A stretch of 24,027 bases of DNA from a virus (taxonomy: Duplodnaviria; Caudoviricetes). The notes under the pieces were generated by a model. The model searched no databases and was not told where the DNA came from. It was given only the letters and a program-made list of their open reading frames with translations. Numbering within the stretch: position 1 is the stretch's first letter; each line of letters starts with the position of its first letter. Location of the stretch: positions 1-24,027 of the IMG/VR virus record IMGVR_UViG_3300035135_000571. One strand, written 5' to 3'. A program made the position numbers and the translations under genes. Shown piece by piece: positions 2,418-11,139 of the stretch.

Positions 2418-2593
2418 CTGAAGAATTTTGGTATGAACCGACTGAAGATGACATGTACCGCGTGTGCATGAAGATCGATGGTGTGACGGCATGTTGCACA
2501 GTGTCGTCGATGCACCTGATTGATGAGAAGCGATCGCAACTGCGCGGTGCGTGTATGCGTCAGTCTTATCAAGCCTTCGATGTCGATTCTTGA
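2414..2593 (+). CDS. Small Cys-containing hypothetical protein, 59 aa, between terS and terL
   Basis: True start at ATGA overlap 2414-2417 (MTEEFWYEPTEDDMYRVCMKIDGVTACCTVSSMHL...); stop overlaps terL start by 14 nt. Confidence 0.65.
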   Translation: MTEEFWYEPTEDDMYRVCMKIDGVTACCTVSSMHLIDEKRSQLRGACMRQSYQAFDVDS

Positions 2594-3914
2594 TACTGCG
2601 CCGATTGGGCATGTCCTTGGTGATGCAACATCGCTAGATGCAGACGAGCTGTTAAATCGCATCAAGTCTGATCTTCACCCAGGCCAGCTTGACTTTGTAT
2701 CAGATCAAGACTCGCAGATCTTGGCAATATCAGCCGGATACGGTGCAGGCAAAACCCGAGCACTATGCGCCAAAACCCTTGCGCTAGCCATTGCTAATCA
2801 GGGCTTCATCGGTTGCGTCATGGAACCAACTGGCCCGTTGATTCGTGACATCTGGCTGAATGACTTCGACGACTTCCTAGAGCAATACGAGATACCGCAT
2901 ACTTTTAGGGCATCACCATTGCCGGAATACGTTTTGCACTTGCCCGGTGGTGATACAAAGATCTTGTGCCGCAGCTTTGAAAACTACCAGCGCATCATCG
3001 GCCTGAACCTTGCATTCTGCTGTGCTGATGAGGTGGACGTTGTAAACACCGCGATCACATCAAGAGCTTTCCCCAAGATTCTTGGTCGCTTGAGATCCGG
3101 CAATATTAGACAGTTTGCGGCAGCATCCACGCCAGAAGGCTTTAAGTGGTTGTATAACGAGTTTGGGGCTCCGGATGCGCTCAAACGTCCAGACCGAAAG
3201 CTCATCAAGATGAAGACAGTAGATAATCCACATCTGCCGCCTGACTTCATTGAACGCTTAAAAGCTAACTACGACCCGAGCTTGCTCAAAGCGTATCTTG
3301 ACGGTGAGTTCGTAAACCTGAACACAGGACAGGTTTATGACAGATTTGATCGCGAGAAGCATGTCATCAAATCATTTGATGCTGGCAATGAACCTTTGCA
3401 TGTTGGCGTTGATTTCAACATCGGAAACATGAGTGCGGTGATCGCAGTACGCACACCAGATAAGCTCATAGTTATCGATGAAATTAGTGGTGGTCATGAC
3501 ACGGATTTCATCGGGCAAGAAATTAAAAGACGCTATCCCCACCGTCAGTTATATGCCTACCCTGACGCATCTGGCGGAAATCGAAGCACGAACGCCAGCA
3601 GAACCGACATCGAAATTTTGCAAAGCTACGGATTCAGCAATCAATCAGAAAGATCAAATCCTCCCGTGCGCGATAGGGTGGCTGCTGTTCAAGCTGCTTT
3701 GGAAAACGGGAAAGGACAAGTAAGGGTGCAGATCACGGAGAACTGCAAGCGCACGATCGAATGCCTAGAACTGCAAAGCTACACGGAGAAAGGTGAGCCT
3801 GATAAAGATGCAGGGTACGATCACATGAACGATGCCATCGGTTACATGATCTGGCGTTTGTTTAATCCACTACATGCAAGAGCAGGTCGCGGAACTGGCA
3901 TCAGAATCTACTAG
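2580..3914 (+). CDS. terL: Terminase large subunit (ATPase + RNase H-like nuclease), ~444 aa
   Basis: LHPGQ adenine-binding motif, Walker A AGYGAGKT, Walker B FCCADEVD, coupling motif ASTPEG, nuclease acidic motifs GVDFN, PDASG and DHMNDA; start placed at ATG 2580 (MSILDT). Confidence 0.97.
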   Translation: MSILDTAPIGHVLGDATSLDADELLNRIKSDLHPGQLDFVSDQDSQILAISAGYGAGKTRALCAKTLALAIANQGFIGCVMEPTGPLIRDIWLNDFDDFLEQYEIPHTFRASPLPEYVLHLPGGDTKILCRSFENYQRIIGLNLAFCCADEVDVVNTAITSRAFPKILGRLRSGNIRQFAAASTPEGFKWLYNEFGAPDALKRPDRKLIKMKTVDNPHLPPDFIERLKANYDPSLLKAYLDGEFVNLNTGQVYDRFDREKHVIKSFDAGNEPLHVGVDFNIGNMSAVIAVRTPDKLIVIDEISGGHDTDFIGQEIKRRYPHRQLYAYPDASGGNRSTNASRTDIEILQSYGFSNQSERSNPPVRDRVAAVQAALENGKGQVRVQITENCKRTIECLELQSYTEKGEPDKDAGYDHMNDAIGYMIWRLFNPLHARAGRGTGIRIY

Positions 3915-3959: not shown

Positions 3960-3968
3960 TCATTGAAC

Positions 3969-4310
3969 ATGCTTGAAGGCGCAGACTTGATTGCTAAGAC
4001 TAAAGCAATGGCTGATGCTTCCCGTTCTGATCTTGTTCGGGAATGTGGCTACGTCACGATTAAAGAAGACGGCACCGAACGGCTCAACTTCGTCACCTTT
4101 TACGAAGCACTGCTAAAGGCAAAAGGCGTTGACCTGAAGCCTAAAAAGCGCATGGGCCGCAAGCTCACGCACAAAACCAAGGTGCAATCTGATGGCAAAG
4201 TGATCGTGGGTAGTGCCTACATCGAAGGCATGAACCTTGATCCTGGCACTACGTTTGACATCAAGGTGGGCCGCAATAGCGTTGTTCTAACTGCTGCAGG
4301 CGCAGACTAA
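3969..4310 (+). CDS. Cyanobacterial AbrB-like (cyAbrB) transcriptional regulator
   Basis: LEGADLIAK...SRSDLVRECGYV...DGTERLNFVTFYEALLKAKGV N-domain and GRKL...KVQSDGKVIVGSAY...LDPGTTFDIKVGR C-terminal AbrB domain, the characteristic cyAbrB architecture; ATG at 3969 preferred over TTG 3963. Confidence 0.92.
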   Translation: MLEGADLIAKTKAMADASRSDLVRECGYVTIKEDGTERLNFVTFYEALLKAKGVDLKPKKRMGRKLTHKTKVQSDGKVIVGSAYIEGMNLDPGTTFDIKVGRNSVVLTAAGAD

Positions 4311-4341: not shown

Positions 4342-5778
4342 GTGTATTCTGGTTTTTCACATTATGACCGGCAATTATTCGCCAAGGTCTCGCAAGTCAA
4401 CGATCCAAATGCAGCGTGGGTAAATCAGCAACCACATTGGATGTTGATTGAGGATTTGATGGGCGGCACTTATGAAATCAGGCGTCGTCATCGTCGGTAT
4501 TTGCCACAAGAACCGCGAGAACTTGATGAATCGTATGACCGCAGGCTGAGCACTTCAATTTGCCCGCCGTATTATCAGCGGCTTGAACGGATGCTGGCTG
4601 GAATGCTTACACGCAAACCAGTTCGTCTTAATGACACATCCGATCAGATCCGTGAGCAGCTTTTCAACGTTGATCTAGCTGGTGCAGATCTCAACGTTTG
4701 GACGTATGAAACAGCACGCAAAATGATCCGTTACGGTCATGTTGGTGTTCTTGTCGATGCACCGCGTGATGGTGGCAGACCTTATTGGAGTTCATATACC
4801 CCACGCGATATTCTTGGCTATCGCACTGAAGTAATCGACGGCGAGCAACGTCTAACGCAGCTTCGTTTGTCTGAAACTGTCATTCTTCCTGATGGCGAAT
4901 ACGGCGAAAAGCAGGTTCAACAGGTAAGGGTGCTAACTCCAGGTGAGTTCAAGGTATTCCAACAAGATGAAAAGAAAGGTGATTTCCGCATTGTTGACGA
5001 AGGTCGCACAAGCCTAAATCGCATCCCGTTTGCTGTTGCTTACGCAAACAAGGTTGGCACGTTTGAATCTCGCCCACCGCTAGAAGATATTGCACAATTA
5101 AACCTTAAGTCTTATCAGATTCAATCTGATTTAGACAATCAGCTGCATATTTCGGCAGTGCCGATGTTGGCCTTTTTTGGGTTCCCTTCTGCAGCAGAGG
5201 AAGTTACTGCTGGCCCTGGCGAAGCAATCGCGTTTCCTGCTGATGGACGTGCGGAATATATTTCCCCGCCATCTGATGCGTTTAAGTCATTGTTTGAACG
5301 ACTGCAGCAGATTGAGCATCAAATCAATGAACTAGGTTTGTCTGCTGTGCTCGGCCAAAAGCTAAGTGCTGAAACAGCTGAGGCTAAGCGCATTGATCGC
5401 AGTCAAGGTGATTCCACGATGATGGTGATCGCTCAAAACATGCAGGACATGATCGACAACTGTCTGCAGTATCACGCTGAATTCCTTGGCGATCGTCAAC
5501 CTGGCAGCAGCTATGTGAACCGCGATTTCCTTGGCACCAGGCTGGAGCCGCAAGAAATTCAAGCGCTGTTGCAGCTTTACACCGCCGGGACCATCACCCA
5601 AGAAACCTTGTTGATGCAGCTCAGCGAAGGGGAAGTGCTCGGCGATGACTTCGATGTAGACGGCGAACTAGAGGCAACGCAAGCTGGTGGCCTGATTGAT
5701 GTTGGTGTTGGTGACATGCCTTCCGGTGAAGACGCACAAAATGAAGAAACAAGCTTCATTGAGGAAGATGCGGCATGA
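4342..5778 (+). CDS. Portal protein (DUF4055-type)
   Basis: 478 aa after terL; YLPQEPRE...YDRRL, YGHVGVLVDAP, PPLEDIAQLN...YQIQSD, SAETAEAKRID motifs and acidic tail typical of this portal family; GTG start. Confidence 0.9.
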   Translation: MYSGFSHYDRQLFAKVSQVNDPNAAWVNQQPHWMLIEDLMGGTYEIRRRHRRYLPQEPRELDESYDRRLSTSICPPYYQRLERMLAGMLTRKPVRLNDTSDQIREQLFNVDLAGADLNVWTYETARKMIRYGHVGVLVDAPRDGGRPYWSSYTPRDILGYRTEVIDGEQRLTQLRLSETVILPDGEYGEKQVQQVRVLTPGEFKVFQQDEKKGDFRIVDEGRTSLNRIPFAVAYANKVGTFESRPPLEDIAQLNLKSYQIQSDLDNQLHISAVPMLAFFGFPSAAEEVTAGPGEAIAFPADGRAEYISPPSDAFKSLFERLQQIEHQINELGLSAVLGQKLSAETAEAKRIDRSQGDSTMMVIAQNMQDMIDNCLQYHAEFLGDRQPGSSYVNRDFLGTRLEPQEIQALLQLYTAGTITQETLLMQLSEGEVLGDDFDVDGELEATQAGGLIDVGVGDMPSGEDAQNEETSFIEEDAA

Positions 5779-6055
5779 TGAGTTAAGCGGCGTGGATGCC
5801 ATGGAACCGGACACATCAGAGAAGTACAGCATCCATTACGTTCAGCAAGAATTGCCCCATCGACTGTTTGCCATTGTGCGAATGCAGTGGCGTTCAGAAC
5901 TTGGGATTGAGATCGTTGACGAAGTGAAGCTGGTTGACGAAGGGTCTGACACGATTGCAGGCTTTTCGGAGCTAATGCACAAAGCAATGGATAACGGCGC
6001 CGAAATTTCCATTATCTCGCCTTACGATCCAGAAGATATTGGATTGAATGAATAA
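5768..6055 (+). CDS. Acidic hypothetical protein (start 5768 or 5801)
   Basis: Fills the gap between portal and minor head gene; TAATG coupling at 6053-6057. Confidence 0.7.
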   Translation: MRHDELSGVDAMEPDTSEKYSIHYVQQELPHRLFAIVRMQWRSELGIEIVDEVKLVDEGSDTIAGFSELMHKAMDNGAEISIISPYDPEDIGLNE

Positions 6056-7245
6056 TGAGTACGCCAGAGTCGTTATACCGAAACGCGATTGATTTAAATC
6101 GCTATAGCAACAGCGTTGCTCGGAGAGTTATCAATGCATATAACGACATTATTTTGGATGCCGTTAATCAGCTTCGTGCTATTGATGATCTTGACGAATC
6201 ATTCAAGGCTGCGCGACTGCGATCAATTATTGCTCAGCTCAAAGAATCATTAGGAACTTGGGCGGGTGACAGCACTGAACTAACAGCGCTCGAACTGCAA
6301 GGGTTGGCTGAACTGCAATCTGAATTTGTAGAAGAACAACTTAAGAAAGCATTGCCACGCGGTAGTCGCAACATTGTTCGCAGCGTTGAGATCAGCCCGC
6401 AATTTGCTCAGTCTGTTGTCGTAGCAGATCCAACGCAGATTAATGTTGTTGCATTGTCAGATGATTTATTTGCTGCAGTGCAAGGCGCACCGCAAACGTT
6501 CAGCTTGACTGCTGCACAGGGTGCAATCATTACCTTGCCAAATGGTCAGGTTGTGCAAAAAGCGTTTCGTGGTATCGCTGAAGATCAAGCCGCATTGTTT
6601 GGGCAAGTGGTGCGGCAGGGATTGTTGACTGGGGAAACTACTGATGAAATTGCAAATAGATTAAAGGGCAGGCTTCGTTATGGGCAGCCCGGAAGCGTCA
6701 AAGAAATTGCCAAAAAAGGCGGTCAAGCCACAACGGTAGCGAATAATCAGGTTATCGCTTTGGTGCGAACTAGCATCAATCAGGTTGCCAATGCTGCATC
6801 GCAGCAAGTGTATGAAGCGAACCAAGACATCACGAAAAAGTATCGCTATGTCGCAACGCTTGACACTCGCACTTCTGCCATTTGTCGTGCTCTAGATGGC
6901 AAAGAATTTGAATATGGCAAGGGTCCGACACCACCGCAGCACTTTAATTGTCGCAGCACAACGGTCGCAGTAATTGATTATGAGGAGCTGGGTTTTATCC
7001 CACCACGCGAAGGCAAACGCGCAGCCGAAGGTGGCATGGTGCCAGCAAATGAAAGTTACGGGCAATGGCTGGCTAAACAACCAAAAGCAAGAAAAATAGA
7101 AGCCCTAGGAAAATCCAAAGTTGCATACTTCGACAAGCTTTCCGCTAAGTATGGCCCAAAGGACGCAATCGCAAAACTTGTGCGTGACGATGGCTCTGAA
7201 GTCACCCTGGCACAACTTCGCAAGCGTTACGGCAAACTAGACTGA
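6055..7245 (+). CDS. Minor head/head morphogenesis protein (SPP1 gp7 / Mu gpF family)
   Basis: LVRTSINQVAN...YRYVATLDTRTSAICRALDG...PPQHFNCRST signature; follows portal. Confidence 0.92.
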   Translation: MSTPESLYRNAIDLNRYSNSVARRVINAYNDIILDAVNQLRAIDDLDESFKAARLRSIIAQLKESLGTWAGDSTELTALELQGLAELQSEFVEEQLKKALPRGSRNIVRSVEISPQFAQSVVVADPTQINVVALSDDLFAAVQGAPQTFSLTAAQGAIITLPNGQVVQKAFRGIAEDQAALFGQVVRQGLLTGETTDEIANRLKGRLRYGQPGSVKEIAKKGGQATTVANNQVIALVRTSINQVANAASQQVYEANQDITKKYRYVATLDTRTSAICRALDGKEFEYGKGPTPPQHFNCRSTTVAVIDYEELGFIPPREGKRAAEGGMVPANESYGQWLAKQPKARKIEALGKSKVAYFDKLSAKYGPKDAIAKLVRDDGSEVTLAQLRKRYGKLD

Positions 7246-7263
7246 AGCAACGGCAATAAATCA

Positions 7264-7329
7264 ATGCCCAGTCACTACGGCCACAAAATGCCGAAAGGCA
7301 AAAAGAAGAAAGGAGCCAAGAAAAAGTGA
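7264..7329 (+). CDS. Lysine-rich micro-peptide, 21 aa (not in ORF track)
   Basis: MPSHYGHKMPKGKKKKGAKKK*; preceded by TAGACT (7238-43); TGA overlaps next GTG start (GTGA 7326-7329). Confidence 0.6.
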   Translation: MPSHYGHKMPKGKKKKGAKKK

Positions 7330-7550
7330 AACGCGGTGATCGTGTCAGCTGGGTCTATCAAGGCAAGCGCACTTATGGTGTCGTGACCAGCATCGCTGGT
7401 GAACGCGCCATGATCAAAGGCCCAACTGGTGGCAACGTTGTGCGTGTCGGCACTAAGGATGATCCTGTGGTTCGGATCAAATCTGAATCAACGGGTAATC
7501 CCGTACTGAAGCGCGAATCACAACTGCGCAAAGCTCCGAAGCGTAAATGA
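7326..7550 (+). CDS. Small basic Tudor/SH3-like protein (Hva1-Tudor/DUF2945-like)
   Basis: GDRVSW...TYGVV...RVGTKDDPVVRIKSESTG..VLKRESQL fits the GDxVxW...S/TxDDPxYxIKSxxTG pattern; AGGAG at 7311-7315 upstream of GTG. Confidence 0.7.
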   Translation: MKRGDRVSWVYQGKRTYGVVTSIAGERAMIKGPTGGNVVRVGTKDDPVVRIKSESTGNPVLKRESQLRKAPKRK

Positions 7551-7822
7551 GCATTACATATCGCGGCGAAACTTTTGAGGGTTACAACAAACCCAAGCGG
7601 ACGCCAAAGCATCCGAACAAATCGCACGCGGTACTTGCCAAAGAAGGCGACAAGATCAAGCTAATTCGCTTTGGGCAACAAGGCGTTTCAGGTTCACCAC
7701 GTCGCGAAGGTGAATCAAAGGCCGCAAAAGCACGTCGTGCTGCATTTAAATCGCGTCATGCAAAAAATATCGCTAAAGGCAAGATGTCAGCAGCCTTTTG
7801 GGCAAATAAAACTAAATGGTAG
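7547..7822 (+). CDS. Highly basic hypothetical viral protein, 91 aa
   Basis: NKPKRTP...KLIRFGQQG...ARRAAFKSRH...SAAFWANKTKW, a motif pattern I recall from uncharacterised phage/giant-virus proteins; ATGA coupling. Confidence 0.8.
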   Translation: MSITYRGETFEGYNKPKRTPKHPNKSHAVLAKEGDKIKLIRFGQQGVSGSPRREGESKAAKARRAAFKSRHAKNIAKGKMSAAFWANKTKW

Positions 7823-7832
7823 TAACATTTAA

Positions 7833-7897
7833 ATGAAAACGTACCCTACGGGTTTTTCATGTCTGACGAGCAAATTCAAGAGGTTACGCCTGTTGAA
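7833..7897 (+). promoter_or_regulatory. Two YUACG-loop RNA hairpins flanking the scaffold start codon
   Basis: ATGAAAA-cgt-ACC-CTACG-GGT-TTTTCAT (7833-7860, pairs the AT of the start codon) and TTCAA-g-AGG-TTACG-CCT-g-TTGAA (7875-7897). Confidence 0.6.
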
Positions 7898-8536
7898 ACG
7901 CAAAGCAACGGCGAAATTGACGCACTAAAAAACAGCATCGAAGCTCTTGAGCGTAAAAATCATGAGCTAATCGGCAAGCTGAAAAAAGCAAAGTCCATCC
8001 CTGAGGATGTGAATGTTCAAGAACTTCTGGACTTTAAGCGCCAAGCCGAACAGTCAAAGCTTGAATCAGAAGGCAAGTACACCGAAGCGCGACAAGCTTT
8101 GGAGCAGCAATTCCGTGAGGCGTCGGCGGAAAAGGACAAGCGCATTGCAGAACTTGAGGCCAGAGTCCGGGAACTTGAATTGATCAGCCCAGCAGTTTCT
8201 GCCCTAGCAGACATTGTGCATGATCCTGATTTGGTGTTGAAGACCAAGCTGTCTGCCGACAAAATTCAGCGCGAAGCTGATGGCACTGTTGTTGTCGTCG
8301 ATGGTTACGAGCGCAGGCCTGTTGCAGATTGGGCGAAATCATCACTGCCCGAATGGATGCAAAAAGCACCGAAGCCACAAGGATCTGGTGCGCCAGCAGG
8401 TCGCAGCACTGGTGCAATTCCAGCCGGCATGAAAAATCCATTTGCCAAGGATAGTTTCAACCTTACAGAGCAATCACGCCTTTATCGGACTGATCGGGAT
8501 TTGTACGAAAGTATGAAAGCCGCCGCAAGTCGTTAA
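7859..8536 (+). CDS. Capsid scaffolding protein
   Basis: 225 aa, long charged coiled-coil, C-terminal GSGAP...KNPF...NLTEQSRL motif; immediately upstream of the capsid gene. Confidence 0.85.
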   Translation: MSDEQIQEVTPVETQSNGEIDALKNSIEALERKNHELIGKLKKAKSIPEDVNVQELLDFKRQAEQSKLESEGKYTEARQALEQQFREASAEKDKRIAELEARVRELELISPAVSALADIVHDPDLVLKTKLSADKIQREADGTVVVVDGYERRPVADWAKSSLPEWMQKAPKPQGSGAPAGRSTGAIPAGMKNPFAKDSFNLTEQSRLYRTDRDLYESMKAAASR

Positions 8537-8547
8537 TATTATTACGA

Positions 8548-8608
8548 GGCAAAGCTACGCGGAGCCAAATCGGGTTACGCCCATCCTGTAAACACTTTTT
8601 ATTGAGGT
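8548..8608 (+). promoter_or_regulatory. Capsid gene leader: two YUACG-loop hairpins and Shine-Dalgarno
   Basis: GGC-aaa-G-CTACG-C-gga-GCC (8548-8566), GGG-TTACG-CCC (8572-8582), GAGGT at 8604-8608 before ATG 8616; TAATAT at 8534-39 upstream. Confidence 0.6.
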
Positions 8609-8615
8609 AATTGTC

Positions 8616-9659
8616 ATGGCGGCAACCGTACGCTCTGATGTAATCATCCCTGAGATTTTTACGCCCTACGTCATTGAGCAAACCACCCAACGTGATGCCT
8701 TCCTGGCTTCCGGTGTGGTGCAGCCTTTGACTGAACTAAACGCTTCCGAGTCTGGCGGCGATTTCGTCAACGTTCCTTTCTGGAAAGCAAATCTTTCTGG
8801 CGACTTTGAAGTTCTGTCAGACAGCTCTTCCCTGACTGTCGGCAACATCACTGCTGATAAGCAAGTTGGTGTTGTGCTTCATCGTGGTCGTGCTTTTGAA
8901 GCTCGCGATCTTGCTGCTCTTGCTGCAGGTTCTGATCCCATGGCCGCCATTGGCGCCAAAATGGGTGCTTACATTGCTAACCAGCGTCAAAAGGATCTGG
9001 TGCAATGCCTGAGCGGTGTTTTCGGTTCTCTGAACGCAAACACCAATGCTTCTGCGTTCTTTGATCTGACCATTGATTCAGCTACTGCTGACACCCCGAC
9101 TGCACTGTCACCTCGTCACGTTGCAGAAGCTCGCGCTCTGCTGGGTGATCAAGGCGATAAGCTGACTGCTGTTGCAATGCACTCCAAGGTTTATTACGAC
9201 CTTGTCGAGCGCCGTGCAATCGATTATGTGACTGCTGCTGAAGCACGTCAAACCGCACTTGGCACCGCTGAAGATGCTTTCGGTGGTTCTACCGCTGGCG
9301 CTTACGGTGAAGTTTCTGTGCCCACTTACATGGGTCTGCGTGTCATCATCTCTGATGATGTGGAGACTGCTGGCTCTGGTGCAAGCACCGAGTATGGCAC
9401 TTATTTCTTCACCCAAGGCGCTGTTGCTTCTGGCGAACAAGCTGGAGTGAACATTGAAACTGACCGCGACATCCTCGCCAAGTCGGATGCAATGTCTGTG
9501 GACCTTCACTACATTTATCACCCTGTGGGTGCTAAGTGGGCTGTGACCACTGCTAACCCAACTCGTGCTCAGCTGGCAACTGCCACCAACTGGTCTAAGG
9601 TTTACGAACTGAAGAACATTGGCATGGTTCGCGCCACCAACGTCTCTAACATGGACTGA
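8616..9659 (+). CDS. Major capsid protein
   Basis: 347 aa after scaffold; SDVIIPEIFTPYV, GGDFVNVPFW, AGSDPMAAIG, MHSKVY, IETDRDIL, LATATNW motifs of a siphophage coat family; biased codon use and clear SD. Confidence 0.93.
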   Translation: MAATVRSDVIIPEIFTPYVIEQTTQRDAFLASGVVQPLTELNASESGGDFVNVPFWKANLSGDFEVLSDSSSLTVGNITADKQVGVVLHRGRAFEARDLAALAAGSDPMAAIGAKMGAYIANQRQKDLVQCLSGVFGSLNANTNASAFFDLTIDSATADTPTALSPRHVAEARALLGDQGDKLTAVAMHSKVYYDLVERRAIDYVTAAEARQTALGTAEDAFGGSTAGAYGEVSVPTYMGLRVIISDDVETAGSGASTEYGTYFFTQGAVASGEQAGVNIETDRDILAKSDAMSVDLHYIYHPVGAKWAVTTANPTRAQLATATNWSKVYELKNIGMVRATNVSNMD

Positions 9660-9674
9660 AGCTGAGTTTTAGTC

Positions 9675-9848
9675 ATGGGCCTGTTCGCTTTTCGGCGGAT
9701 GCGTGAACAAGAGGCTGCTGCATGTGCGGCGGCCTCTTTTTGTGTCCCCAAAACAGAAGTAAAAGCCGAGGCTAAAACAGAGCCAAAGCCCAAAAAGCAA
9801 CGCACCGTAAAACCAAAACTGGAGAAGGCTGATGGCGATAACGATTGA
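9675..9848 (+). CDS. Small hypothetical protein, 57 aa (not in ORF track)
   Basis: MGLFAFRRMREQEAAACAAASFCVPKTEVKAEAKTEPKPKKQRTVKPKLEKADGDND*; GTC-ATG context like other genes; overlaps the next start, whose SD-like GGAG it contains. Confidence 0.6.
   Translation: MGLFAFRRMREQEAAACAAASFCVPKTEVKAEAKTEPKPKKQRTVKPKLEKADGDND
9709..9741 (+). terminator. Intrinsic terminator downstream of the capsid gene (inside the 57-aa ORF)
   Basis: GAGGCTGCTGC-ATGT-GCGGCGGCCTC 11-bp stem (two G-U pairs) followed by TTTTT. Confidence 0.75.
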
Positions 9849-10394: not shown

Positions 10395-10622
10395 ATGGGT
10401 TATGCCTATCCCGGCGCTGAATATATCAGCGATACTGCCGCACACACAGGACGCTTTGGCAAAGTAGTTGCGCTTGAGGATTCAGTGATTGCGACTCTGG
10501 TCGCTGAAGACATCACCGGCAATGCACTGACTGCAGTTGTGCTTAAAGCCGATTGTGAAATCTGCGGAGTGATCACAAGCGTTACGCTGACTAGCGGCTC
10601 TGTAATCGCTTACAAGCTCTAA
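10395..10622 (+). CDS. Small beta-rich virion protein, paralogue A (75 aa)
   Basis: GAEYISDTAAHTGRF...GVITSVTLTSGSVIAYKL; aligns by eye with the next two ORFs. Confidence 0.8.
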   Translation: MGYAYPGAEYISDTAAHTGRFGKVVALEDSVIATLVAEDITGNALTAVVLKADCEICGVITSVTLTSGSVIAYKL

Positions 10623-10624
10623 TC

Positions 10625-10882
10625 ATGGCACATAACAGCAGCCCGATTGATCCTTCCTATAGCATCGGCGCTGACTTCGTGAACAGCACGACGGCGCAAA
10701 CTGGGCGTTGGAATCGAATTACGATCCTTAAAAACAACTCAAGTTTTTCTGCTTTGACTGCTGAGAACTGGACTGGTAACAGCTTGGTTGGTGAATCGTT
10801 GCCTGCTGGGTTTGAAATTCAAGGTGTATTTACAGCGTTCACCCTGCACGGCTCTAGTGCTGTTGTTGCATACAAGATCTAA
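10625..10882 (+). CDS. Small beta-rich virion protein, paralogue B (85 aa)
   Basis: GADFVNSTTAQTGRW...GVFTAFTLHGSSAVVAYKI. Confidence 0.8.
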   Translation: MAHNSSPIDPSYSIGADFVNSTTAQTGRWNRITILKNNSSFSALTAENWTGNSLVGESLPAGFEIQGVFTAFTLHGSSAVVAYKI

Positions 10883-10884
10883 TC

Positions 10885-11139
10885 ATGGCTAAAGCACAAG
10901 GCGGCGCAAGCATTGTTGACTGGTCAGTAGGTGCAGAGGTTATTACTGACACGGCAGTTCATACCGGCAAATTTCTGCACATTGATTTTTTTGAGAACAG
11001 CACGATCACCGCGATTGTCAGCACAAACGTGATCGACAACAGTTTTGCTGGTGCATCTATTGATTCTGGTGCTCACCTGACGGGTTACTTTACTAGCATC
11101 CAGCTTCAGAATGGTGCTTGTATAGCCTACAAGATCTAA
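10885..11139 (+). CDS. Small beta-rich virion protein, paralogue C (84 aa)
   Basis: GAEVITDTAVHTGKF...GYFTSIQLQNGACIAYKI. Confidence 0.8.
   Translation: MAKAQGGASIVDWSVGAEVITDTAVHTGKFLHIDFFENSTITAIVSTNVIDNSFAGASIDSGAHLTGYFTSIQLQNGACIAYKI

Follow-up and report, generated by a model that had tools for sequence, protein, structure and literature searches.

The way in which tailed phages match scaffold synthesis to capsid synthesis is a question that has rested on P22 genetics from 1985. In that year, Casjens and Adams as well as Wyckoff and Casjens reportedly described autoregulation of the P22 scaffold gp8. Passages of PMC5529062 and of bioRxiv 10.1101/2022.12.13.520362 present this autoregulation as post-transcriptional. 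A cyanosiphovirus locus with four hairpins of common loop, two at the scaffold start (H1, H2) and two in the capsid leader (H3, H4), raises the question of which molecule reads them and what such reading would do to both genes. The locus lies in the window, i.e. the whole stretch of 24,027 nt analysed (virus record IMGVR_UViG_3300035135_000571). On the sequence evidence presented here, the hairpins form a real and conserved RNA operator set, and the case for the scaffold itself as their reader is, at sequence level, unusually clean.

Gene annotation assigned the window to the part of a siphovirus-like phage genome that encodes packaging, head and tail functions. It comprises genes for the terminase (2520-3914), an AbrB-like regulator of cyanobacterial type (3963-4310) between terminase and portal (4342-5778), MuF (6055-7245) and, upstream of the scaffold, Hva1_TUDOR (7326-7550) and the basic protein phrog_7595 (7547-7822). 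The head scaffolding protein, our candidate reader (225 residues, 7859-8536, plus strand; phrog_206, E 1e-24), directly precedes the major capsid protein (8616-9659, plus strand; phrog_247, SPP1 gp13-like). A strong terminator-like hairpin with a T run (9709-9738) lies 50 nt past the capsid gene, inside an ORF at 9675-9848, and would allow capsid message to exceed tail-gene message. Three small tandem paralogous ORFs, each matching phrog_34166, occupy positions 10395-11139. Among relatives, the Hva1_TUDOR and phrog_7595 genes (7326-7822) are gained and lost independently, and the AbrB-like gene is patchy, 27 of 89 relatives having one.

The nearest cultured phages include KBS-S-2A (capsid 83% and scaffold 75% identical to the window) and S-H1, both cultured on Synechococcus WH7803, followed by MED4-184/P-HS2/MED4-117 (capsid 66%, scaffold 51%), of which P-HS2 was cultured on Prochlorococcus MED4. 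The window is thus a cyanosiphovirus head-tail operon related to KBS-S-2A, S-H1 and MED4-184, and a picocyanobacterial host is inferred from these relatives. Its hairpin-bearing relatives constitute a large family of aquatic cyanobacterial viruses. A search of a genome collection returned 10 loci, none of them in a cyanobacterial prophage, four being close relatives on MAG/SAG contigs. These four (L401-L404) belong to non-cyanobacterial records and probably represent co-binned phage DNA rather than host evidence.

The four hairpins reported by the first-pass annotation are present on the plus strand and fold as it proposed. H1 (7833-7860, loop 7847-7849) and H3 (8548-8566, loop 8556-8558, with a 3x3 purine-rich internal loop) are C-UAC-G triloops, and H2 (7875-7897, loop 7885-7887, in scaffold codons 6-13) and H4 (8572-8582, loop 8576-8578, GGG/CCC stem) are U-UAC-G triloops. 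Fold energies were -7.7, -9.3, -5.2 and -4.7 kcal/mol for H1 to H4 (z-scores -2.2, -4.2, -0.9 and -1.9), so that taken singly H2 alone stands out and H3 and H4 are unremarkable. Of the two loop shapes initially envisaged, the Y-G-closed triloop was retained and the UNCG-like tetraloop register was rejected, since stems pair in the triloop register and the loop classes UGU, UAU and CGU found among relatives break UNCG. Moreover, the closing pair alternates between C-G and U-G (U-G in 83 of 139 H4 variants), which favours plus-strand RNA and the triloop over UNCG. As for the proposed sequestration of the scaffold start codon, the 3' arm of H1 does enter the AUG, but pairing of the AUG is just partial in relatives.

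Both pairs had been placed behind -10-like boxes. Such boxes are present, TAACAT (7823-7828) upstream of H1 and TAATAT (8534-8539) before H3, both on the plus strand, but the second overlaps the scaffold stop codon, and they are putative scaffold and capsid promoters only. The sole site listed by a promoter consensus scan of the plus strand was 8513-8542. In relatives, TAnnnT occurred within -45 to -26 in 330 of 355 and TGnTAnnnT in 124, as raw counts without a null; TAnnnT was also found at the scaffold stop in 334 of 359, and no stop was TGA. Spacing was regular: H1 and H2 are mostly 35-41 nt apart, H3 and H4 17-22 nt apart (326/358). A conserved single-stranded (Y)GUAAAC word after H4 (8587-8593, plus strand) is independent of loop class, recurs as YGUWAA or GUGAA in 160 of 210 leaders and may be a host-factor or nuclease site. 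The capsid gene has a Shine-Dalgarno-like GAGG (8604-8607, plus strand), and GAGG or GGAG was found in 96 of 210 capsid leaders; none of 188 distinct scaffold leaders had a Shine-Dalgarno-like word. A search of window positions 7200-9800 with Rfam 15 covariance models gave only two chance-level matches (E 5.8 and 7.5), and seven relatives of the four other loop classes gave none at gathering threshold. In one marine metatranscriptome, 0.21 of the words were present, on contigs that give neither starts nor strand.

The loop word itself is common. YTACG occurs 82 times in the window versus 52.8 expected, with a strand bias (56 plus, 26 minus); this excess and bias possibly stem from codon usage. 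Yet folded cognate hairpins are limited to the scaffold and capsid starts, contrary to an equal frequency elsewhere: only five of the 82 sites fold into a hairpin of -4 kcal/mol or lower with that loop, and four of these are H1-H4. On the plus strand of S-H1, the 4 of 140 UGC sites that fold are exactly the equivalents of H1-H4. Over 20 genomes, on the scaffold strand, the cognate loop word folds at 68 of 108 sites in the span from the scaffold to the capsid leader versus 21 of 1525 elsewhere, and the words of other classes fold at none of the 94 sites in that span and at 93 of 4389 outside it. No further recurring cognate site was detected across these 20 genomes, where the rate is at background. 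The fifth folded UAC hairpin of the window (position 4049, -4.4 kcal/mol) lies inside the AbrB-like gene. Two genomes of the UAU class (G017, G018) have an extra folded cognate hairpin in early scaffold codons, at +43.

Relatives displayed the compensatory stem changes to be expected of a protein-bound RNA element with a conserved loop on variable stems. In distinct 21-mers anchored by loop word and position only, and compared with shuffles that ignore relatedness and hence overstate significance, the first pair of H1 was intact in 76 of 81 (C-G, U-A or G-C; shuffle mean 53.9) and that of H2, which adjoins the closing pair, in all 96 (six pair types; shuffle mean 44.4). The H2 pair is kept despite coding sequence, codon 10 turning T/A/V/M with the loop. 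Pairs 1-3 of H4 were intact in 136, 127 and 129 of 139 and are mostly invariant G-C, while in 26 hand-picked leaders of the window's H3 type all 234 cells pair, with two double-sided changes.

The loops switch jointly. From the first collections and three cultured genomes, 383 loci were usable; 292 were distinct, and 270 had an H4 call. The pooled set comprised 359 distinct relatives with a called loop, distributed over five classes, UAC, UGC, UGU, UAU and CGU. In fold-based, class-blind calls, the loop equalled that of H4 in 160 of 162 cases for H1, 170 of 171 for H2 and 242 of 249 for H3, versus 54.9, 56.1 and 78.2 matches expected under independence, about one third; 108, 99 and 21 loci, respectively, had no Y-NNN-G call. 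The real mismatches are L170 (H1), L208 (scaffold versus capsid pair) and L146 (H3). The others are miscalls or a truncated start, six of the seven H3 mismatches being AAA/AAT miscalls. Additionally, identical stems carry different loops across relatives. Loops thus co-vary within each genome, as predicted, and joint switching and covarying stems both support a protein-bound element.

The two pairs differ in persistence. Almost all loci keep the capsid set: among full leaders, an H4 call was missing just from L252 and seven variant loci. Cognate H1 and H2 were found in 257 and 253 of 355 relatives. Neither is present in 92 of 355 (MED4-184 clade included), which keep the capsid set. Judged from this distribution, the scaffold pair appears dispensable and self-repression through the H1/H2 loops is not universal. 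Several loci without scaffold hairpins (L411-L415, L454-L484) have three cognate hairpins in the capsid leader. In others (L017-L028, L031, L034, L037), a stem at the H1 position carries variable non-cognate loops, H2 is lost and the capsid pair is UAC. L208 and L209 have identical scaffold C-terminal parts and the UGU code, yet the capsid pair of L208 is UGC; this locus may have recombined recently or represent an intermediate in switching. Seven Prochlorococcus-type loci share an altered scaffold helix (…LEANNKKLMDQY/DDY…); the capsid leaders of L303, L307, L314 and L315 have a U-R-closed NUGC tetraloop and those of L310, L319 and L320 other loops. These seven are further specificity classes outside the residue-loop rule described below.

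When alignment columns of the window proteins were scanned for agreement with loop class, the scaffold N-terminus stood out, the co-variation mapping to residues 26-40. An AlphaFold2 model of the scaffold (45 sequences, mean pLDDT 78.7, pTM 0.38, about 53-83 in this block) has residues 1-16 disordered, a helix at 17-44 (codons 7907-7990, plus strand), a long helix at 53-117, a small alpha/beta domain and two C-terminal helices. The predicted helix 17-44 has a heptad pattern (I20 L23 I27 L30 N34 L37 L41, N34 being invariant in the alignment), in which residues 26 and 40 fall at g, 31 at e, 35 at b and 39 at f. The candidate specificity residues, S26, E31, H35, G39 and K40 (codons 7934-7978, plus strand), co-vary with the loop letters.

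Among the 359 distinct loci, K at residue 40 went with A as second letter in 178 of 178 and E or D with G in 181 of 181, E at residue 26 with U as third letter in 154 of 155 and S or R with C in 204 of 204, and K or R at residue 39 with C as first letter in 8 of 8. Residue 35 is aromatic in 174 of 178 genomes with A2 and in none of 181 with G2. All four A/G x C/U combinations occur, and one of 67 distinct 15-mers from these loci is mixed. Acidic residues suit G and U, through the imino N-H, and K, R and S suit A and C; the observed pairing of acidic residues with G/U and of K/R/S with A/C is what one would expect of direct hydrogen bonding. Residue 31 tracks letter 3 equally to residue 26, with which it changes together (S26/E31, R26/D31, E26 with R, K, Q or L31), and residue 39 tracks letter 2 equally to residue 40. 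The contact residue is therefore ambiguous, from co-variation, between 26 and 31 and between 39 and 40.

A fixed rule was derived: K/R at residue 39 predicts C as letter 1, K at residue 40 predicts A as letter 2 and E at residue 26 predicts U as letter 3. The rules for letters 2 and 3 came from the first 110 scaffolds, before the second set was collected, while that for letter 1 was based on one locus (K39), R being added after later data had been viewed. The rule fitted 119 of 119 called loci of the first set (2 of 121 uncalled) and 149 of 150 of the second (21 of 171 uncalled). A later test set consisted of divergent scaffolds from a profile search and four close loci from the genome collection, two families being predicted before their leaders were read; the rule was correct in 89 of 90 called leaders (5 of 95 uncalled). 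These include 24 of 24 UAU loci, beside five S26 relatives with UAC, 23 of 23 UGU loci in the P0143 family, a subfamily without H1/H2, and 4 of 5 CGU loci. Overall the rule failed twice, at L208 (UGU code, UGC capsid pair) and at L546 (A39 with CGU), the one CGU miss.

The helix codons and H3 are some 520 nt of scaffold sequence apart. On the tree of this intervening C-terminal part (239 rows, duplicates collapsed), code, H4 and joint state required 23, 24 and 24 steps, versus about 111 for shuffled labels; the corresponding counts were 30/29/30 on the MCP tree and 27/28/28 on both the MuF and the Ad1 tree. These 23-30 class changes on flanking-sequence trees were coincident in all but one; because the loci are related, and recombination and tree error inflate the number of steps, these figures establish that joint change recurred but not exactly how often. 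Additionally, among 50 pairs at least 90% identical in the scaffold C-terminal part and yet different in H4, both codes fit in 49.

As loop letters change in step with scaffold helix residues, the scaffold likely reads the hairpins itself, and free scaffold, one of the two binders first suggested, is strongly favoured by residues that track loop letters across 359 loci. We consider it likely, on the combined co-variation, that unassembled scaffold binds the four hairpins directly, likely represses its own translation and probably promotes capsid production. The first step, direct contact of helix 17-44 with the loop bases, is the one in which we have most confidence. The helix would probably form a parallel coiled-coil dimer, two equivalent faces of which would take one hairpin pair; residues 26 and 31, at g and e' and changing together, would fit g-e' neighbours of such a dimer. 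Residue 39 would then read letter 1, residues 35, 39 and 40 letter 2, and residues 26 and 31 letter 3. Given this contact, it is fairly likely that scaffold on H1 and H2 would block initiation and that free scaffold would fall when exceeding capsid protein: H1 and H2 bracket an AUG without Shine-Dalgarno, and a protein clamping both would straddle the start codon, hence likely repression. The feedback loop would be closed by procapsid assembly, in which the C-terminal KNPF...NLTEQ region would take scaffold out of the free pool.

The capsid side of the mechanism, in which scaffold bound to H3 and H4, where the capsid message presumably begins, would favour capsid output, is given slight preference under the same premise. 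Possible routes would be shielding of the 5' end or scaffold held beside nascent capsid protein. Folding predicted no Shine-Dalgarno-freeing switch in the capsid leader, and clamping H3 and H4 left the capsid start little changed (mean unpaired 0.438 to 0.448 over 210 leaders; 0.48 to 0.43 in the window). With no access switch predicted, the sign of capsid-leader regulation is not readable from folding. A positive effect is favoured because it gives negative feedback, the capsid set is always kept and phage 80alpha offers a precedent. According to passages of PMC5744158, capsid output of 80alpha falls without scaffold or its N-terminal sequence; its authors there deem misfolding likelier and mention a P22-like role. 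A wider reading, on which our judgement is evenly balanced, would make the scaffold coiled coil a new reprogrammable residue-per-base RNA reader which self-represses and promotes or docks onto capsid message, switching serving to insulate co-infecting relatives.

Could the reader be something other than the scaffold? Another protein or RNA might read the loops, scaffold residues tracking them through linkage to H1/H2 or through helix docking onto that reader. The codons for residues 26-40 lie just 45-90 nt from H2, so that linkage does contribute, and among the first 110 scaffolds some columns inside the H2 codons tracked loops nearly as well. However, synonymous codons vary freely within loop classes, the code predicts H4 in 62 of 63 loci without matching H1/H2 (23 of 23 in the P0143 family), and it is amino-acid-level, letter-specific and combinatorial, which together counter the linkage confound. 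The proteome scan of 20 genomes (16 contigs, three cultured phages and the window, some incomplete) covered 40 ORF families found in at least 11 of 20, poorly shared early genes falling outside it; two long families were without column test and two without testable column. Only the scaffold had error-free columns for both letters; its antisense shadow ORF had one, for letter 3. The AbrB-like protein is absent from 62 of 89 relatives and near-identical across classes, and its two-error columns in 21 loci were lost with more data. Likewise rejected were the capsid protein (best column 19 of 104 errors), the scaffold C-terminal half (near-identical across loop classes), RNA-RNA pairing of loops with class-specific codons (synonymous codons vary within classes) and self-kissing loops (UACG is, by inspection, not self-complementary). 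A different reader is accordingly quite unlikely. The neighbouring proteins, i.e. the TUDOR-like (7326) and the basic one (7547), are commended as binders by adjacency and by their basic or Tudor-like character. Among loci with sufficient flanking sequence, however, 117 of 238 lack the former gene and 60 of 248 the latter, and 29 of 221 that keep the hairpins lack both; even the best columns of the two proteins gave 8 errors in 52 and 13 in 71. Neither is required, and binding by either is hardly credible. Of the proposed shared operator coordinating scaffold and capsid, the hairpin sets at both starts are confirmed, free scaffold is favoured as the reader, and the neighbouring-protein binder was dropped. 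Equally hard to credit is a DNA element, a double-stranded palindrome or extruded hairpin: the minus-strand C-GTA-G resembles stable DNA triloops, but the U-G closing pair would be a C-A mismatch on that strand, compensatory flank changes are needless for a double-stranded site, and minus-strand folds are weaker.

Granting the scaffold as reader, the effect of binding may be otherwise. With the same reader and code, bound scaffold might repress both genes or merely delay capsid translation, acting as a general brake. Known autogenous phage operators are mostly repressive, and H4, whose loop ends at a fixed 27-37 nt upstream of the capsid start in relatives, stands where a bound protein could block the ribosome standby site. 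Repression at the capsid leader would be positive feedback, however, high free scaffold raising free scaffold further; moreover, loci that have lost the scaffold pair retain the capsid set, some of them with three hairpins, and 80alpha capsid output drops without scaffold in the passages cited (PMC5744158). Such a brake is unlikely, though the least so of the alternatives. A boxB/nut-like role, in which scaffold would act through these promoter-proximal hairpins on transcription elongation or on read-through of the terminator that follows the capsid gene, is by comparison very improbable. Both sets do follow -10-like boxes, the first capsid-leader loop lying mostly 12-22 nt past TAnnnT, a terminator-like hairpin exists at 9709-9738, and phage-specific loops recall lambdoid boxB. 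Against this, the H1 loop word is fixed relative to the AUG (beginning 13 nt before it in 179 of 260), H1 is kept where the scaffold directly follows an upstream gene without evident -10 box (L057, L058), no boxA-like element was seen, and the candidate reader is no arginine-rich peptide but a helix with a heptad pattern.

Scaffold-mediated control of this kind may, by analogy, work like P22 autoregulation. As in P22, the gene is a procapsid scaffold (phrog_206) directly before the capsid gene, with structured RNA at the scaffold initiation region, here H1 and H2 with covarying stems. In contrast to P22, one defined triloop recurs here, the capsid leader has a hairpin set of its own, and scaffold residues correspond to loop bases in five classes; the scaffold is also assigned to a family different from gp8. 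Likeness was judged by PDB and Foldseek searches: no scaffold was among the 22 PDB sequences at E<=1, and there was no Foldseek match at E<=0.001. The best PDB sequence match, the Mpa ATPase coiled coil (E 0.0015), was taken as general heptad resemblance. A further parallel is offered by the structured RNAs that immediately precede another phage head gene, GP20, which we take to be the scaffold. Besides GP20-a (RF02991) and GP20-b (RF03003), parts of PMC10690425 report six more candidate RNAs located before GP20 genes, GP20 being described as a gene of unknown function. Our hairpins differ in having no Rfam match, and these parts of the GP20 accounts name no reader, capsid-leader copy or specificity classes. 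Four H4 words were absent from the 6 PMC10690425 alignment files searched, three larger files lying outside the search. The capsid-leader motif may nonetheless be among the candidates of that study.

Lambdoid N and boxB also combine short hairpins repeated in one genome with a phage-specific loop matched to a short helical reader. N, however, is an arginine-rich motif which acts in antitermination on loops of 5-6 nt (a GNRA-like penta/hexaloop with boxA), whereas here an assembly chaperone with a heptad helix would face triloops at translation starts. In PUF/PPR repeat codes, combinations of a few residues specify individual bases, acidic ones standing for G or U, and a correspondence of the same kind is found here. 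It involves no repeats but about 15 residues of one helix that match three loop letters; no Pfam match to PUF/PPR tandem repeats was found, and the AlphaFold2 model has a single 28-residue helix there. The MS2-type coat protein operator lets a phage structural protein sense its free pool through mRNA structure. Autogenous control is also stated for T4 gp32 in part of PMC10690425. The scaffold would likewise be an abundant phage protein sensing its free pool by binding mRNA structure, with a different reader fold and two pairs on two genes instead of the one operator of MS2 and gp32. For SPP1 gp11, no such control is reported in passages of PMC6316719, and the main text of PMC5737381 does not mention scaffold, capsid or GP20. 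Our literature search, with subscription journals outside its scope, found no paper on the hairpin motif, a scaffold-read capsid-leader operator or a residue-to-base code, and no defined operator-protein contact for phage scaffold/capsid balance. As far as this literature goes, the two-gene layout and the apparent recognition code seem to be new.

For the control of scaffold and capsid synthesis, this cyanosiphovirus family supplies an RNA, a protein segment and natural specificity variants. Cultured members exist, and the question is testable with a 37-residue peptide, a 35-nt RNA and two to four substitutions. If binding is confirmed, the short list of RNA recognition codes would gain one based on base reading by a coiled coil, five operator-peptide pairs, potentially orthogonal, would become available, and there would be a candidate reader for orphan RNA motifs before phage head genes. 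A KN-x-ELL-like stretch of the helix is visible by eye in many very distant scaffolds; for this reason, the coiled-coil reading device may be widespread in tailed phages.
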